Positions 2,331-50,667 of a stretch of DNA of 64,000 bases are shown here, in pieces. The notes under the pieces were generated by a model. That model was not told the origin of the DNA. It made no database searches and saw only the letters and a program-made list of their open reading frames with translations. The first letter of the stretch is position 1. Each line of letters begins with the position of its first letter. This stretch comes from Acholeplasmataceae bacterium (GTDB taxonomy: Bacteria; Bacillota_I; Bacilli_A; Acholeplasmatales; Acholeplasmataceae), in assembly GCA_041654835.1 (NCBI GenBank), contig JBAZCQ010000002.1, positions 74,476-138,475 on the forward strand, written 5' to 3'. A program made the translations under genes and the position numbers.

Positions 2331-3346
2331 GATGATACCCCCTCTTTAAATTGGCGTAAAAAGCGAATGTCGTTTGTATAAAAATGACGAATATCATCAA
2401 TGTGGTATTTCAATAAGGCGATCCGTTCAACACCGACACCAAAAGCAAAACCACGATAAACTTGTGGATCATAGCCGCCCATCCGAAGCACTTCTGGATG
2501 AACCATGCCAGCACCTAAAATTTCAATATATTCAGTCGTTCCATCTTGTTTTTGCATAAGAACGTCCACTTCCATTGACGGTTCTGTAAAGGGGAAATAG
2601 GACGGGCGTAAACGAATCTCTCTTTCAGGTCCAAACAAATGACGTACCATTGTTAAAAGGGTATCTTTTAAATGTGCCAATGTAATGTCTCTATCGATAA
2701 CCAATCCTTCAATTTGCATAAATTGATGTGAATGTGACGGGTCATCGTCATCTTTTCGATAGACCTTACCAGGGCAAATAATTTTTAATGGCTCCCCTTT
2801 CATTTTCAGCATGGCTCGTGCTTGAACCGGTGATGTTTGTGTTCTTAATAACGTTTTATCATCGATATAAAACGAATCTTGCATGTCACGTGCAGGATGG
2901 TCTTTAGCAATGTTCATCATTTCAAAATTAAATAAGTCAAGTTCAACTTCAGGTCCTTCTTCAACGGTATAACCCATTCCTAAAAATAAGTCTTCAACTT
3001 CTTCGATGACTTGATTTAACGGATGAATCGATCCTTGATAAAGGTGGAGTCCTGGGAGCGTCACATCGAGTTGTTCTTTTTGTAGGGTTGCAATAAGGAT
3101 GGCTTCTTCAAGATTTTGTTTTCGTGCCGTCCACGCAGCTTCAATGGCAACTTTAATGGTGTTGACAGCTTGACCAAAGGCTGGACGCTCTGCTGGATCC
3201 AAATGACGCATTTGCCCCATTACTTCAGTTAAACGGCCCTTTTTCCCAAAATAGCCCACACGGACAGCCTCTAAGGCTCCTATCGTTGTTGCTTGTTCAA
3301 TTTCAAAAAGAGCTTCGGTTTTAATTTGCTTCAATAACTCTTTCAT
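2327..3346 (-). CDS. pheS: Phenylalanine--tRNA ligase alpha subunit
   Basis: 339 aa. Class II motifs FPFTEPS and [12 protein letters not shown] are present. A T-box leader lies upstream and pheT immediately downstream. Confidence 0.97.
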
Positions 3347-3361
3347 TTTTCACTTCTCCTT

Positions 3362-3570
3362 TAATTTGCTATAAAAAAATCCCTAGACAAATGTCTAAGG
3401 ACGAAAAATTCCGCGGTACCACCTTAGTTCCAGATACAGATCTGGCCCTCTTTTTCTTTAACGCAGAAAACGGATGGGATTAGCATCTCTCAAGAATGAA
3501 TTCAAAATCGACCACTTGCATCGTTCACACTAGCCGATGCTCACTGAAAAAGCTTTACAATTTTTACTAT
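3362..3570 (-). promoter_or_regulatory. T-box riboswitch leader of pheST (putative Phe UUC specifier)
   Basis: The minus strand reads AACTAAGGTGGTACCGCGG (complement of 3411-3429), the conserved T-box sequence. It is preceded by a stem III hairpin CCAGATctgtATCTGG (3430-3445). It is followed by a terminator CCTTAGA...TCTAGGG plus a U-run (3372-3400). GAA-UUC-A on the 3' side of the presumed Stem I places the codon at 3498-3500. Confidence 0.85.
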
Positions 3571-3591
3571 TTTCTCTCACTGATTTTTAAT

Positions 3592-45889: not shown

Positions 45890-45920
45890 AAACGAGTCGG
45901 TTAAAGTATCGCGCTCGTTT
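45890..45920 (+). terminator. Possible weak terminator after ptsI
   Basis: AAACGAG ... CTCGTTT forms a 7-bp stem with a 17-nt loop. There is no clear U-run beyond the stem. Confidence 0.35.
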
Positions 45921-46163
45921 CTATAATCGATCAAATACATAACAATTATACGAATATAGAAATATTACGTCCAATTGTTTCGGTATTAACAAACTTGCAG
46001 TAGTCTGATACGTTAAGTATTGGACTTTTTATATTGTTTTAATCAAAAATTGTTAAAACTAACAAAGAATAGTGTTGATGAATTTGATAAAAAACTTCAG
46101 TTTAAATTTATGACAGAACAGCAACAAAAGCAAACCATTATATTTGATACTTGTAGAATACAT

Positions 46164-46192
46164 TTGACTTACATTAAATATGTTGTTATAAT
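46164..46192 (+). promoter_or_regulatory. Near-consensus sigma-A promoter of the peptide-maturation cassette
   Basis: TTGACT (46164-46169), a 17-nt spacer, and TGt-TATAAT (extended -10; hexamer at 46187-46192). Confidence 0.7.
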
Positions 46193-46234
46193 TAACAAGA
46201 AAGGAGAGGGTAGTCTTTCTACTCAACATAGCTG

Positions 46235-47854
46235 ATGAAACTAAAAATATTAAAAAAGTCAAAGGCATTGAAGTGCATGGTTGTTCTATTATTTACAATA
46301 AGTATTTTACTGTTTGTTATTATGGGTTTGTTTTCTTTATTTCAAGGGAGACTAATTGATTCGATATCAGAATCAAGGGAGGACTTTTTAAAAAATATTT
46401 TATATCTTGGGATTATCATTGTTATTAGTTCTTTATTATACTATTTTATGAACAAGTTGACTATGAAAGTTGCAGTTAAGGGTTCTTTTTTAATTAGAGA
46501 CGATGTATTTCAAAATGTCATTAACAAAGACTATCTGGACTTCACAAAGAAAAATAAAAGCGAATATTCGTCGCTTCTTTTAAATGATGTAAGACAGTTA
46601 GAATCAAACTACTTAAATCCAATGCTAATGTTAGCAGGTGGTATAACCTCAGTTGTTGTATCCACTGTACTTATGATATATTCTAATTTTGTTCTTGGAT
46701 TAATAATCATCGGTATAACGATTGTTTTGTTTTTCTTGCCATTATTTGTATCTGGGATCATGATGAGATTGCAAAGAGAATATTCAGACCAAGTTTCCCA
46801 GTATACTTCTACAATCAACAATCTTTTTGATAATTACTTAACAACAGCAACCAAAGGAATCACCGGTTATGTGATAAAAAGATATCAGAAAACCAATTTA
46901 AACCTATTTAAATCTCATCAACAATTGGGTAACAAAAAATCTTTGGTAGAAACAATAGGTCAAATTAGTCATTTTTTGATAACTGCAATCGCTGTGATTG
47001 TATCTGCGATTTTTGTTTTTGATAACAAAATTTCAATTGGTGATCTAACGGTTTTTGTAGCATTAACGGGGACGTTCACTTCAAGCTTATCACTTATTTT
47101 TCAAATTGTTCCAGTTGTAAAAAGCATGTCTCCAATTATTGAAAAAATTAATTTTTTTTCGGAAGTAAAAGCAAATGAGACAAATCAATTATTCACCATA
47201 GAAAGCGCCATCCACAGCATTAAAGCCGATAGATTATCATTAAATATAGGTAATAAAAATGTCCTTAATGAGATAAGTTTCGATATTAATCATGGTGATA
47301 AGGTTATTTTTACCGGTCCAAATGGAGGAGGGAAAACAATGTTATCTTACATTATTATGGGATTATTAAGAGATTATAGTGGCAGCATAAAAATTAACAA
47401 TCAAGAATTAAATTATATAAAACAAGAATCCTTATCGAAAACAATCAGCTATATACAACAAAATCCCATACTATTTGACGGATCAATAAAGGATAACCTC
47501 ACGCTTGATAACTCAATTTCAAACGACGTCTTATTACAAACAATTAATTTTGTTGGATTGACTGAGTGGTTTTCAAACCAACATGACGGATTAGATAGTA
47601 TTATAAATAATGATAATATAAAAATGTCAGGTGGGGAAAAGCAAAGGCTTTTTATCGCTAGATCAATCTTAGAAAATAAAGACATAATTATTTTAGATGA
47701 ACCGGATAGCGCTGTAGATATTATCGGAAGACAATGGCTAATGGATTTTATAACTAAAACAGATAAAACAATCATCATGATATCTCATAATATTAAAGTA
47801 TACGATTTAAATATTTTCAACAAAAGTTTTTTTGTTGGTGAGGAGATTTTATGA
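46235..47854 (+). CDS. ABC exporter, fused permease/ATPase (no peptidase domain)
   Basis: 539 aa. The N-terminal six-TM type-I exporter domain starts at about residue 15. Walker A is GPNGGGKT, the signature is MSGGEKQR and Walker B is IIILDEPD. The start codon choice is uncertain (weak RBS; alternative ATG at 46277). Confidence 0.88.
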   Translation: MKLKILKKSKALKCMVVLLFTISILLFVIMGLFSLFQGRLIDSISESREDFLKNILYLGIIIVISSLLYYFMNKLTMKVAVKGSFLIRDDVFQNVINKDYLDFTKKNKSEYSSLLLNDVRQLESNYLNPMLMLAGGITSVVVSTVLMIYSNFVLGLIIIGITIVLFFLPLFVSGIMMRLQREYSDQVSQYTSTINNLFDNYLTTATKGITGYVIKRYQKTNLNLFKSHQQLGNKKSLVETIGQISHFLITAIAVIVSAIFVFDNKISIGDLTVFVALTGTFTSSLSLIFQIVPVVKSMSPIIEKINFFSEVKANETNQLFTIESAIHSIKADRLSLNIGNKNVLNEISFDINHGDKVIFTGPNGGGKTMLSYIIMGLLRDYSGSIKINNQELNYIKQESLSKTISYIQQNPILFDGSIKDNLTLDNSISNDVLLQTINFVGLTEWFSNQHDGLDSIINNDNIKMSGGEKQRLFIARSILENKDIIILDEPDSAVDIIGRQWLMDFITKTDKTIIMISHNIKVYDLNIFNKSFFVGEEIL

Positions 47855-49065
47855 AATACAAATTTTGTAAAAATATACGATGTGAAAAAGTAAAAAATGA
47901 ATATATTGTAGGTGATATTTTTACTGGGACAATTATAACGCTTACTAAAGATGGTGAAAAACTCATTAAACACATACAGAAAAACAAAGATATTAATGAC
48001 ATCGAGTTTCTTAGTAATGAACAACAGGAGCTATTTTCATTTTTGTTATCTAACAATTTCATTATAGAAAAAAACAAAGAAGAGAAACAAATTAATTACT
48101 TAAGAACTGTATATTTGCACGTTAATAATGTTTGTAATTTTTCTTGTCATGGGTGTTATTCTGGTTCGTTGAGAAGTGGGGCATTTAGATTTATATCAAA
48201 TGAAGAAACCAAAATTTTGGGGGAACAACTGGTTTCGAAGGGATGTAAACAGGTTATTGTTTCTGGGGGAGAGCCAATGATGTCAACAAATATATATGAT
48301 GTAGTGAAAACTCTTAAGGAAGAAGGAATATCATTTATAAGCTTAATCTCAAATGGGTTTGAAAATACAGACAAATACCTTAGCATGTATGACTATGTTG
48401 ACAACATATCTTTTTCATTAGATGGATATAGTGATACAAGCAGCACTATAAGGCCAAAAAGCACAGTTAGAAAAATAAAGGGATTGGTAAAAAAGCTTCA
48501 TGATTATGAGAAAAATGTCTCATTGATTATTACTATACATCATTTCAATCTAAGAGACATTGATTTGTTTATAGAGATGGTGGATAATTTGAGGGTTAAT
48601 TTTAATTTTAGTGTTTATCTATCGTTTGATGATAATGACCCTTTTAGATTAACAAAAGAAGATTTTTATTTCTTAAACGATTGGATAGACAAACATTCTA
48701 TGCATAAATACTTTGAAGAATCAAATTTGGCATATAAAGAAACTTGCGGCCTTGCTAAACATATTTGTTCTATTGATCAAAATCTCGATGTTTACCCTTG
48801 TCACATGATGATGAGAGAAGAATATAAACTAGGAAGTCTAAAAAAAGATAGATTACATAGCATTTTATCGAAACCAGAAACAATCCGTTTGCAAACGAAC
48901 TTCGTGTTTAAGAATGAAGAGTGCAAGATGTGCGAAGTAAAACACTTTTGTGGTGGAGGGTGCATTGCAAGATCTATAAGCGAAGAAAAAAATAAAAATA
49001 CTGTAGATCCATTGTGCAAATCGTATAAATGTCAAATATCATCGTATCTTGAATCCATCTTTTAA
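47851..49065 (+). CDS. Radical SAM / SPASM-domain peptide-modifying enzyme with N-terminal RRE-like extension
   Basis: 404 aa. CNFSCHGC (CX3CX2C; C95/C99/C102) follows an N-terminal extension of about 90 aa. The C-terminus has C299, C306, C317, CKMCEVKHFCGGGC (C358/361/367/371), C389 and C394, which is a SPASM pattern. The ATG overlaps the exporter stop (ATGA). Confidence 0.9.
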   Translation: MKYKFCKNIRCEKVKNEYIVGDIFTGTIITLTKDGEKLIKHIQKNKDINDIEFLSNEQQELFSFLLSNNFIIEKNKEEKQINYLRTVYLHVNNVCNFSCHGCYSGSLRSGAFRFISNEETKILGEQLVSKGCKQVIVSGGEPMMSTNIYDVVKTLKEEGISFISLISNGFENTDKYLSMYDYVDNISFSLDGYSDTSSTIRPKSTVRKIKGLVKKLHDYEKNVSLIITIHHFNLRDIDLFIEMVDNLRVNFNFSVYLSFDDNDPFRLTKEDFYFLNDWIDKHSMHKYFEESNLAYKETCGLAKHICSIDQNLDVYPCHMMMREEYKLGSLKKDRLHSILSKPETIRLQTNFVFKNEECKMCEVKHFCGGGCIARSISEEKNKNTVDPLCKSYKCQISSYLESIF

Positions 49066-49108
49066 GTATTTGTTGTGGTTCTAAAATTTTATAGAAGGGA
49101 GAAAAAAC

Positions 49109-49183
49109 ATGAAAAAAGCAATTGTTACACCTAATGGATGGTGTTTTGGAATTGGTCCATTTTGGATTGGCAAAATCACATAA
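49109..49183 (+). CDS. Putative precursor peptide, 24 aa: MKKAIVTPNGWCFGIGPFWIGKIT
   Basis: It is not in the ORF track, being far shorter than any ORF the track lists. GAAGGGAG (49094-49101) lies 7 nt upstream of the ATG at 49109, and the TAA is at 49181-49183. It lies 43 nt downstream of, and co-directional with, the rSAM/SPASM gene, and a stable hairpin follows. Confidence 0.7.
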   Translation: MKKAIVTPNGWCFGIGPFWIGKIT

Positions 49184-49196
49184 TCTTAAATGGTAG

Positions 49197-49234
49197 CAAA
49201 AGCGGATCTTCTGAATCAAGAGGGTCTGCTTTTG
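49197..49234 (+). terminator. Stable hairpin downstream of the peptide ORF (terminator/attenuator or mRNA stabiliser)
   Basis: CAAAAGCGGATC (49197-49208) pairs with GGTCTGCTTTTG (49223-49234). This gives 12 bp including two G-U pairs, with a 14-nt loop. There is no extended U-run beyond the UUUU inside the 3' arm. Confidence 0.4.
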
Positions 49235-49367
49235 ATAATTGCAGTAAGGCTTGTAAGATTGAAATTTTTATAATAAATATAATGGGAGTTAAAAATAGCA
49301 TTTAGCAGTTTTTAAAAAAAATAGTTGGTGTATACTAGTAGTGTAGTAGTGATTGGAGATGCATAAA

Positions 49368-50351
49368 ATGAAGTTAACAAAAGAAGCAATATATATAAAT
49401 GTATTATTGTTGATTAACCTTGTACTCAATGAGTCACCTAAAGATATTATAAAATTATATGAAGATACTCTCTCTAATGTTTTCAAATTAAATATAGACG
49501 AAAACACAAAACAAATACTAAAAGAATATGAAGAGTTTTATGTCCAATTTGAAAAAAGGTTAGATAAAGAAAATTTAAGCGATATCTTTAGATTGAAAGA
49601 CACTTTTTATAATTTAATATCAATATATATGAAAGTTGAAAATCGTGAAAACAAAAATATTTTAAACAACATATATGATGAATGGCTGCTAGATAAAGAT
49701 TTGACTTTAGATAAATCAATTGATGCTTTGCCACTTTCTGCAAATGATAAGTGGATTTTATTTAAATTTATTAGTGACTACGATGAACATATAAGTAATG
49801 TGTTTGATGTTGTTTTAGAACAAAAGAAATTTTTTAATGATTTGCTACCCCTTTTAAAGAATTCATATTTAAAAATAGATAACTTCAAAGACATGGTTAT
49901 AAATAATACAGCACTAAACGATACAGCATTCTCTTTAAGTAATGACATTGAAGAGATTGTTCCGCTTATTTCTGCCCCATTTGCGACACTTATACAAGGA
50001 AAGAAAGCTTATAGAGGGATTTTGATCGATTTAATAGTAAATGATAAAAGTGAAGATAAAATAGCAAAAAATTTAACGATATTAAAATCAGTTATTGATA
50101 ATACCAAATTTGCTATATTATCTTCAATTGCCCAAAAACCAAAATATGGTGCTGAACTTGCTAAAGAATTGAATTTAACACCAGGAACTATAACATATCA
50201 CACAAATGAGTTAACTGCCTTTAAATTAATTTCTCCAACTGCAGTTGGAGGAAAAATATTTTATTCAATAAACAATCAAAGAATAAATTCTGCATTTGAT
50301 GAAATTAAAAAGCTACTAATCTTGCAGAAAAATGATGAGATTAAGAACTAA
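49368..50351 (+). CDS. Transcriptional regulator: about 240-aa helical N-terminal domain of unknown function plus C-terminal ArsR-type winged HTH
   Basis: The C-terminus FAILSSIAQKPKYGAELAKELNLTPGTITYHTNELTAFKLI matches the ArsR/SmtB wHTH pattern. GGAG lies 9 nt upstream of the ATG at 49368. The track start at 49353 is a TTG. Confidence 0.72.
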   Translation: MKLTKEAIYINVLLLINLVLNESPKDIIKLYEDTLSNVFKLNIDENTKQILKEYEEFYVQFEKRLDKENLSDIFRLKDTFYNLISIYMKVENRENKNILNNIYDEWLLDKDLTLDKSIDALPLSANDKWILFKFISDYDEHISNVFDVVLEQKKFFNDLLPLLKNSYLKIDNFKDMVINNTALNDTAFSLSNDIEEIVPLISAPFATLIQGKKAYRGILIDLIVNDKSEDKIAKNLTILKSVIDNTKFAILSSIAQKPKYGAELAKELNLTPGTITYHTNELTAFKLISPTAVGGKIFYSINNQRINSAFDEIKKLLILQKNDEIKN

Positions 50352-50608
50352 TTTTTTACTAAACTATGATGCTTTGGTTCACTTGTGATTTAAAAGGAAC
50401 TGTAAATAAATAAAATTTTTATATAAAAAGTTTCGGTCAATTGATCGATTAAAAATGAAAACATTTTAATATATTAATGTACACAATAAAAAAAGATATA
50501 GAATAATTGAATAATCATCTACTATGAAACTTAATATTTGCTAAGTCTTTACATAAATATGCCCAAAAATTTTTTTTATTATTTATATAGATTAAATGTG
50601 AAAAAAAT

Positions 50609-50656
50609 GGGGCTGTAATCCATGATACATAAAATGTTTCATTTCTTTACAGCCCC
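50609..50656. terminator. Bidirectional terminator at the right edge of the AT-rich insert
   Basis: GGGGCTGTAA (50609-50618) pairs with TTACAGCCCC (50647-50656). An A-run lies on the left and a T-run on the right. It serves the minus-strand ABC-2 operon and possibly the plus-strand regulator. Confidence 0.7.
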
Positions 50657-50667
50657 TTTTTATTTAT

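Follow-up and report, generated by a model that had tools for sequence, protein, structure and literature searches.

We analysed a 64,000-nucleotide (nt) stretch of DNA from an Acholeplasmataceae bacterium (contig JBAZCQ010000002.1), here called the window, and focused on positions 46164-50351. In this region, four co-directional genes on the + strand encode an ATP-binding cassette (ABC) exporter, a radical S-adenosylmethionine (radical-SAM) enzyme, a 24-codon open reading frame (ORF), and a regulator. We consider it likely that they form a self-contained radical-SAM cassette for a ribosomally synthesised peptide with post-translational modifications (RiPP), and that this cassette makes and exports a cross-linked peptide derived from the 24-amino-acid (aa) product. 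We infer co-transcription, substrate identity, cross-link type, export, and biological role. The features of the locus are listed below; L012 is an orthologous cassette in an Izemoplasmatales metagenome-assembled genome (MAG).

46164..46192, + strand: sigma-70-type promoter with TTGACT, 17 nt, TATAAT, and a TG extended -10 (11/12 matches plus TG)
46235..47854, + strand: fused ABC exporter, 539 aa, matching PF00664 plus PF00005
47851..49065, + strand: radical-SAM/SPASM maturase, 404 aa, with a predicted RiPP recognition element (RRE) at residues 1 to ~85 and the SPASM region at residues 299-394
49094..49102, + strand: Shine-Dalgarno sequence GAAGGGAGA of the putative precursor gene, 7 nt 5' of the ATG
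49109..49183, + strand: putative precursor peptide gene, 24 codons, MKKAIVTPNGWCFGIGPFWIGKIT, beginning 43 nt past the maturase stop
49197..49234, + strand: stem-loop, predicted stem of 16 bp counting G-U pairs, U-rich on its 3' side, from folding against shuffles
49328..49336, + strand: GTGTATACT motif 5' of the regulator gene, kept in the ortholog (L012 ~3080-3088)
49368..50351, + strand: regulator, 327 aa (332 aa from TTG 49353), with a C-terminal ArsR/SmtB/SdpR-type winged helix

An earlier note on this DNA had claimed a near-consensus promoter in front of the four genes. The element at 46164-46192 bore this out, as the pattern TTGACA-N14-TGnTATAAT at no more than one mismatch occurred once in the 64 kb window against 0.05 occurrences expected from shuffles and is therefore beyond chance for AT-rich DNA. 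The promoter sits 43 nt 5' of the exporter ATG, and its spacer contains an ACAT-N5-ATGT palindrome (46172-46184). The maturase ATG overlaps the exporter TGA as ATGA, an arrangement by which the two genes are, judging from the sequence, translationally coupled. The hairpin placed after the small ORF is also present; its stem, however, comprises 16 bp including G-U pairs and not the 12 bp described. With a centroid energy of -23.7 kcal/mol and a z-score of -4.6, it was matched by no shuffle, and it is likely a terminator or attenuator. Further downstream, in otherwise poorly conserved DNA, no stretch of conserved columns in the intergenic alignment of the window with L012 is longer than GTGTATACT. 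This motif could serve the regulator as the -10 element or operator of a promoter of its own.

The enzyme belongs to the radical SAM superfamily (PF04055, 72.3 bits against a threshold of 29.5) and to the SPASM subfamily (PF13186, 28.4 bits against 21.5; TIGR04085, 55.9 against 27). Its CX3CX2C motif reads C95-x3-C99-x2-C102 and is invariant across eight aligned family members. The SPASM-region cysteines (C299, C306, C317, C358-x2-C361-x5-C367-x3-C371, C389, and C394) make up a full SPASM set. The earlier description of a 404-aa enzyme with CX3CX2C from residue 95, a full SPASM set, and an ATGA overlap was thus accurate in every part. The profile checks proposed with it were run, placing PF04055 and TIGR04085 above their cut-offs, whereas PF05402 (PqqD), searched at E up to 10, had no match among the first 90 residues.

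Curated NCBIfam enzyme models ranked StsB best, with 89 bits against a cut-off of 625, followed by WgkB (67 against 650) and DynA (65 against 450); the SCIFF maturase model scored 58 against 425 and PapB 49 against 340, and AlbA was not among the 25 best models listed. The enzyme thus falls outside the curated sactisynthase and ranthisynthase families (StsB, AlbA, SCIFF maturase, and PapB). It also falls outside the curated Trp cross-linking maturases, since WgkB and DynA are below cut-off and the W-I-G-K of the window peptide lacks WGK, KGDGW, and W-x-W-x-K, the motifs of streptide-, tryglysin-, and darobactin-type precursors. Every non-RiPP SPASM family in NCBIfam stayed far below its cut-off. 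TIGR03942, which represents anaerobic sulfatase maturases, gave 54 bits against 349, and the CX3CX2C motif stands at residue 95, behind the RRE domain. No sulfatase, heme, or PQQ genes were present in the flanks examined, which hold phosphotransferase system (PTS) genes, an ABC-2 pair, and thrS. These results support the view that the enzyme lies outside the non-RiPP SPASM clades.

Structural comparisons pointed in the same direction. A profile built from the eight family members matched CteB (5wgg) best in the PDB, with an E value of 1.4e-29 over residues 8-381, followed by PqqE, SkfB, and anSME. SkfB, the third-best match, reached 5.7e-25 and aligned only to residue 344, SuiB reached 2.4e-7 against the 1.4e-29 of CteB, and the profile matches also included NirJ and AhbD. 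In an AlphaFold model of the full enzyme, with a predicted local distance difference test (pLDDT) score of 70, the best full-length fold match was again CteB, ahead of anSME, at an identity of ~19%. A separate model of residues 1-87 (pLDDT 82) showed a beta-beta-beta-alpha-alpha arrangement. Its top PDB matches were nearly all RREs, including TbiB1 with leader (5v1v; template-modelling score, TM, 0.64) and a lasso B1 protein (6jx3; TM 0.67-0.69), and further matches were CteB, MccB, ThcOx, SuiB, and PbtF. The sequence match of TbiB1 to this domain was marginal (E 0.99). Because PqqD was undetected by sequence, it is the predicted fold that carries the RRE assignment, and at that level the N-terminal extension claimed in the earlier note is supported.

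The 24-codon ORF with its strong Shine-Dalgarno sequence, 43 nt after the enzyme gene, was present as described. In a scan of GTDB that returned 337 enzyme relatives, with locus details for the 80 listed, the closest relative of the cassette was the 4-kb contig L012, where all four genes recur and their order is unchanged. The identities between the window and L012 were as follows.

Exporter: 56%
Maturase: 54%
Peptide: 15/24 residues
Regulator: 39%

The ortholog peptide, MKKAVVTTKGWCVGIGPIWFGKVS, occupies the same position in L012 and in L092, and its ribosome-binding site GGAAGGAGA lies at the same distance from the ATG as GAAGGGAGA. Between the window and L012, six codons of the peptide ORF differ only synonymously and all replacements are conservative, whereas the DNA flanking the ORF does not align; L012 even has a different hairpin at the place of 49197-49234. 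Because of the 15/24 identity, the six synonymous-only codons, and the non-alignable flanks, we conclude on the sequence comparison that the 24-codon ORF is a real gene under a pattern of purifying selection. By sequence, then, a conserved precursor gene adjoins the enzyme, as is general for RiPP cassettes. The residues conserved in both peptides include W11, C12, G14, G16, W19, G21, and K22. The window peptide has one Cys in its 24 residues and is cationic (isoelectric point 9.8) and hydrophobic. Its calculated monoisotopic mass without modification is 2663.412 Da ([M+3H]3+ 888.811). A degenerate DNA pattern for G-W-C-x-G-I-G-P-x-W-x-G-K had one match among JGI metagenomes, L092, which derives from the same Izemoplasmatales-type strain and in which the peptide gene again adjoins maturase and regulator; the same pattern had no match in viral contigs. 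The L012-type cassette is the only orthologous cassette found, and so far it is shared by two wall-less lineages.

The earlier note had called the cassette an orphan; its enzyme, however, has a family. A word-indexed protein search gave 13 relatives, and among 1.84 billion cluster representatives 95 were found at E <=1e-30, the best non-self match being 35% identical; these ~95 family clusters refer to clustering at 50% identity. The closest relatives are 27-35% identical over >90% of the length, with E values from 1e-38 to 7e-55 and the N-terminal domain included. In the 80 listed GTDB loci, the relatives range from ~23% to 34% identity and come from many Lachnospiraceae plus Streptococcus, Enterococcus, Staphylococcus, Veillonella, Neobacillus, Lysinibacillus, Kandleria, and Clostridium. 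The window enzyme has the motifs YPCHMM, CGGGC, and H(V/L)TN.CN in common with them. No specific NCBIfam model exists for the window enzyme or five relatives, none of which reaches the cut-off of an enzyme model, and RefSeq and PGAP carry generic names only. No description of the family was found in the searched literature, the scope of which left subscription-journal papers outside, so that a prior bioinformatic mention is possible. Gnavucin D was considered as a match and rejected, being thurincin-H-like and unrelated. This sequence evidence places the window enzyme, as a divergent member at <=35% identity, in a Firmicutes family that is so far uncharacterised.

The loci of this wider family are strikingly uniform, with one to six tandem short precursors, a radical-SAM/SPASM enzyme, a CPBP (Rce1-like) intramembrane protease, and a fused ABC exporter. 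They also hold an ABC ATPase, a permease of ~250 aa, and a membrane protein of ~150 aa, often together with LytTR/histidine-kinase and AgrB genes. Short Cys-containing precursors adjoin the enzyme in 24 of the 80 listed GTDB loci (20 of the 40 best); the outcome that would have counted against peptide maturation, homologues never adjoining small ORFs, thus did not occur. In several family genomes the precursor lies directly downstream of the maturase, so the maturase-then-precursor order is normal for the family and not atypical, as had been claimed. Together with the RRE fold, the CteB match, and the conserved ORF, the precursor-adjacent relatives support the peptide-maturation reading.

Typical family precursors are MLFATKKSTTKPNCVSFGVFLCVSYGKNW, MLKFSTKKTKKAGCVSVGALVSVSIGHYIKEIKSTV, MAEKKKKKKTGCVNIAIVSVGITAGVVSI, and MSEQRKDVKKNGKKKGGCINILIVQAGYDGKKWTI, and that of the closest relative (35% identity) is MLFSSNNKKGCGTFKVWRIPVTVGVFGV. 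They follow a pattern of a short Lys-rich N-terminus, Gly or Asn (Ser once), an invariant Cys, and a hydrophobic Gly-containing core. The Cys is the sole residue invariant in all 29 curated precursors, and the L093 peptide and the two window-type peptides have it as well. A K-x-W ending occurs in many precursors of the wider family, and several have no Trp. With this family the window peptide shares its length, K2-K3, G10-(W11)-C12, C-x3-G (CFGIG compared with CVSVG), and a G-K near the C-terminus. No precursor was assigned to a Pfam or NCBIfam family. A claim of statistically supported homology between the window precursor and the wider family was withdrawn, as an E value of 4e-11 arose only with the window peptide in the profile. 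The resemblance appears, from the sequences, to be qualitative only.

Several features of the wider family were recorded in their own right. L032, L035, L022, L016, and L037 carry as many as six precursor genes in tandem, the cores of which differ slightly, and this suggests combinatorial product sets. L032 carries five genes of the '...GGCINILIVQAGYDGKKWTI' type plus a short 'MLKKHSGCINISIVNAGFKK' (959-1648), and the best NCBIfam model for its enzyme is WgkB, at 146 bits. In the Lachnospiraceae-type loci, an AgrB-like gene directly follows the exporter (L002 8555-9205; L003 6414-7010 and 8461-8985; L006 5961-6578; likewise L010, L032, and L051). AgrB might process the radical-SAM precursor, or the cluster might be under agr-type control. 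A Streptococcus salivarius megaplasmid (L097, NZ_CP018188.1, 119688-128966) carries the CPBP protease, radical-SAM enzyme, exporter, ABC pair, and LytTR/histidine-kinase genes, but an ISSag10 transposase and lnu(C), a gene for lincosamide resistance, stand in place of the 5' part of its maturase. The 36-aa precursor that matches L097 turns up very often in contigs of S. salivarius and S. anginosus.

Alignments of the window exporter to peptidase-containing NCBIfam exporter models begin at model position ~150, so the exporter has no C39 peptidase domain; the earlier claim of a 539-aa fused exporter (PF00664/PF00005) without C39 was therefore correct. Against the streptosactin exporter model GggC it scored 140 bits with a cut-off of 750. 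Its identity is 56% to the L012 ortholog but only 24% to the wider-family exporters. The regulator likewise agreed with its description as a protein with a C-terminal ArsR-type winged helix-turn-helix, as the ArsR/SmtB, SdpR, and HTH_24 models matched residues ~242-322 weakly but consistently. No family was detectable in its N-terminal ~240 aa. Besides itself, no homolog was found among 5.8 billion proteins, and only the L012/L092 ortholog is known. Because of comparison with the database entry and with the ortholog, ATG 49368 is the more likely start by sequence, rather than TTG 49353.

The threonyl-tRNA synthetase (ThrRS) of the window is 78% identical to those of Mariniplasma anaerobium and several Acholeplasmataceae MAGs, and long ORFs in translation table 11 without TGA interruption fit the standard genetic code. 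The corresponding region of Mariniplasma and of a related MAG (L095 and L096) reads thrS, ABC ATPase, ABC-2 permease, three unannotated genes, ptsI, and EIIA. The window keeps the same frame, and the radical-SAM cassette fills the slot between ptsI and the ABC-2 permease; in Mariniplasma, this slot holds three unrelated unannotated genes of 99, 435, and 96 aa, with no cassette in the region. The GC content of the cassette is 27-31% against 34-38% in both flanks, which delimits an island at ~45900-50660. These sequence features indicate that the cassette is probably a variable-slot island acquired horizontally, and no convincing direct or inverted repeats were found around it. A plasmid or phage origin was tried and rejected, the sole plasmid match being the disrupted wider-family cluster L097. 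The downstream ABC-2 pair was rejected as immunity genes; because of its core-genome GC and its synteny with thrS in Mariniplasma, it belongs to the core genome and stands outside the system. A terminator-like hairpin with a T-run after ptsI (46002-46026) probably ends the PTS operon before the island promoter. A T-box leader on the - strand (window 3394-3589; RF00230, 118 bits) is unrelated to the cassette.

From these results, a mechanism can be proposed, for which the operon logic and the RRE-guided radical modification are drawn from what is established for CteB, SuiB, and related enzymes. The strong promoter would drive exporter, maturase, and precursor as one transcript, which the hairpin past the precursor gene would end or attenuate, and the regulator would probably have its own promoter. 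The N-terminal RRE of the maturase would bind the Lys-rich N-terminal strand (MKKAIVT...) of the 24-aa peptide, and the radical-SAM core, aided by the SPASM auxiliary clusters, would cross-link the Gly/Trp-rich C-terminal half. The bond may be a thioether that joins Cys12 to a carbon, in the backbone or a side chain, of a residue downstream of it, with a change of -2 Da. Gly21 would be the most attractive acceptor, and the G21-K22 of the window peptide matches the conserved G-K of the family. The thioether is preferred because the Cys is invariant in the precursors and because StsB and CteB, the nearest model and the nearest structure, form thioethers; we hold it as a tentative first choice among the chemistries, at somewhat less than even chances. 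The peptidase-less ABC exporter would then secrete the product, possibly without leader removal, since neither C39 nor CPBP is present and the N-terminus may be exported intact. The product would most likely be membrane-active on competitors or siblings, as a bacteriocin or a cannibalism-type toxin, or would be a signal for the linked regulator. The large N-terminal domain of the regulator is compatible with either toxin or signal.

Several observations weigh against this reading of a productive thioether-forming cassette. No curated enzyme family reached its own cut-off with the window enzyme. In a leave-out precursor model built from the 29 family precursors, the window peptide was not in the top eight of 2958 small-ORF variants, the eighth match having an E value of 2.5. 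The putative leader of <=10 residues is short for RRE-dependent recognition. In the 64 kb, phmmer detected no CPBP protease with either of two CPBP queries from the family (E up to 1e-4), so the absence of a protease claimed in the earlier note is a real difference from the canonical loci of the family. In the ortholog, the maturase has an in-frame TGA (L012 2773-2775) at the codon equivalent to Cys371, in all three independent assemblies (L012, L092, and L004), which are 99.4-99.5% identical to each other; by its position in the SPASM motif, Cys371 is predicted to be a cluster ligand. A 1-nt T-run deletion (TTTGTTATATG compared with TTTGTTTATATG) also frameshifts the ortholog maturase in two of the three assemblies, as follows.

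L012, ~2480-2487: frameshifted
L092, on the reverse strand: frameshifted
L004, ~900: intact

The TGA could represent selenocysteine, recoding, recent decay, or phase variation, and no convincing hairpin resembling a selenocysteine insertion sequence was found in the 80 nt after it (z-score -1.0). For the deletion, candidate explanations are phase variation, decay, and an error of assembly at the homopolymer, and the cassette may be decaying in the ortholog lineage. A further point is Cys306 (window 48766-48768), a residue that the window enzyme has in common with its ortholog alone; at this position, the other aligned members have Ile, Leu, or Val. The resulting spacing, C299-x6-C306-x10-C317, recalls the fully ligated auxiliary cluster I of anSME, whereas the rest of the family has the two-Cys pattern of CteB, which leaves the auxiliary cluster I site open for the substrate Cys thiolate. 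Cys306 could complete the ligation of this cluster and alter the chemistry, and it would then weaken the thioether model, as CteB leaves that very site open for the substrate Cys. Finally, the two Trp and one Lys conserved in both peptides and the second rank of WgkB fit a Trp carbon-carbon cross-link.

The last point leads to the closest competing explanation, in which the cassette is the same but the enzyme forms a cyclophane-type C-C bond at Trp11 or Trp19 (for example, Trp19-Lys22) and Cys12 is structural or free. The conservation of W11, W19, and K22 in both known peptides speaks for it, as do the third rank of DynA behind WgkB, the WgkB match of family member L032 (146 bits), the many wider-family precursors ending in K-x-W, and the possible closure of the open site by Cys306. 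Yet the Cys is universal and several wider-family precursors are Trp-free. The WgkB and DynA scores are far under their cut-offs, the SuiB profile match is far behind that of CteB, and the W-x-G-K spacing fits neither WGK nor KGDGW. We therefore give the Trp cross-link a distinctly smaller share of the probability than the Cys12 thioether, and what is left goes to epimerisation, other bonds, or no activity. A more far-reaching version, in which two wall-less lineages share a minimal RiPP pathway without leader protease, is slightly less probable still, and we regard it as unlikely. It would install a new cross-link (for example, Trp-Cys or Trp-Lys/Gly) on a near-leaderless 24-mer, with Cys306 of the maturase fully ligating auxiliary cluster I and the product hitting exposed wall-less membranes or signalling.

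The losses and lesions described above could also mean that the cassette is a non-productive remnant of a larger cluster from which the CPBP protease and immunity genes have gone. Of what the canonical relatives carry, the window lacks the protease, the ABC pair of ATPase and permease, and the small membrane protein, and it also lacks the LytTR, histidine-kinase, and AgrB genes; and the ortholog maturase shows the TGA and, in two assemblies, the frameshift. In the window itself, however, all frames are intact, the Cys371 codon (48961-48963) is TGC, every Fe-S cysteine is present, and the promoter pattern is unique in 64 kb. The protein sequence downstream of the ortholog TGA stays conserved in frame, and the same four-gene set occurs in a second wall-less order at 39-56% protein identity, which implies long-term selection on the reduced form. 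A remnant is accordingly improbable, and the window cassette appears, from its gene content and sequence, to be a reduced and divergent offshoot of the wider family. Less probable still is that the enzyme matures a target other than the small peptide (for example, a protein, cofactor, or lipid) and that the 24-codon ORF is incidental. SPASM enzymes do include non-RiPP members, and the profile matches contain anSME, NirJ, AhbD, and PqqE; but the predicted RRE fold, the small ORF conserved with synonymous changes, the precursor genes adjoining the enzyme across the family, the lack of sulfatase, heme, or PQQ genes in the flanks examined, and non-RiPP model scores far under their cut-offs all speak against it.

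Thousands of uncharacterised radical-SAM RiPP clusters are already catalogued, and the existence of another is unsurprising to a specialist. The cassette type is known, that of an RRE-dependent radical-SAM/SPASM RiPP; what is new is the unusual host, the minimal gene set, and the distance from characterised families, so that the cassette is useful for genome mining and is not a new kind of system. No literature linking Acholeplasma with radical-SAM RiPPs was found. If the preferred reading of a productive RiPP cassette is true, it would show free-living Mollicutes-like bacteria taking up, and then retaining, systems that compete or signal through peptides; if the reading with a new cross-link is true, the product would be the first characterised RiPP from Acholeplasmataceae/Izemoplasmatales. 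New peptide chemistry keeps emerging from radical-SAM RiPP enzymes, and the cassette offers a compact target, with one enzyme, one synthesisable 24-aa substrate, one exporter, and no protease needed. With a substrate that can be synthesised, it gives easy access to the uncharacterised wider enzyme family, whose members are frequent among streptococci associated with humans, Veillonella, and Lachnospiraceae.

Among known systems, CteB, the thioether maturase of SCIFF/ranthipeptides (5wgg), has the same layout of RRE, radical-SAM core, and SPASM domain, and its substrate is also short and Cys-containing. The SCIFF precursors, however, have six Cys in ~45 residues against one Cys in 24 for the window peptide, and the window enzyme differs from CteB in its identity of only ~19%, its sub-cut-off score with the SCIFF model, and its extra Cys306. 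The window peptide is Cys- and Gly-rich (C12, G14, G16, and G21), a composition that recalls the Cys-to-Gly links of the StsA/StsB system. StsA of Streptomyces sparsogenes cross-links Cys to Gly alpha-carbons, and StsB works with a separate RRE protein, StsC, and yields three nested bridges (PMC10288494). In the window, by contrast, the RRE is fused to the enzyme and the peptide has a single Cys. The Firmicutes family that combines a radical-SAM enzyme, CPBP protease, and 'MLFxxKK..GC' precursors also has short Lys-rich precursors with the Cys after Gly or Asn, and the window enzyme is homologous to its enzymes. The window cassette fits this family in its enzyme but neither in its precursor profile nor in the CPBP plus ABC pair, and it has an ArsR-type regulator in place of LytTR, histidine-kinase, and AgrB.

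The sporulation killing factor (SKF) system of Bacillus subtilis (SkfA/B/C/E/F), like the wider family, combines a radical-SAM thioether enzyme with ABC genes and a protease of the CAAX/CPBP type. In SkfA, the leader ends in ..KAAG and the core begins with Cys, and SkfB carries a twitch-type auxiliary cluster and not a full SPASM domain. No CAAX protease is present in the window, and thus no candidate for SKF-style leader removal and head-to-tail cyclisation. The StrB/SuiB, WgkB, and GggB/GggC systems are likewise short-peptide radical-SAM cassettes of precursor, maturase, and exporter. The streptide, tryglysin, and streptosactin systems are under Rgg/SHP regulators, whereas the window cassette has an ArsR-type regulator, a different peptide motif, and WgkB and GggC scores far below cut-off.

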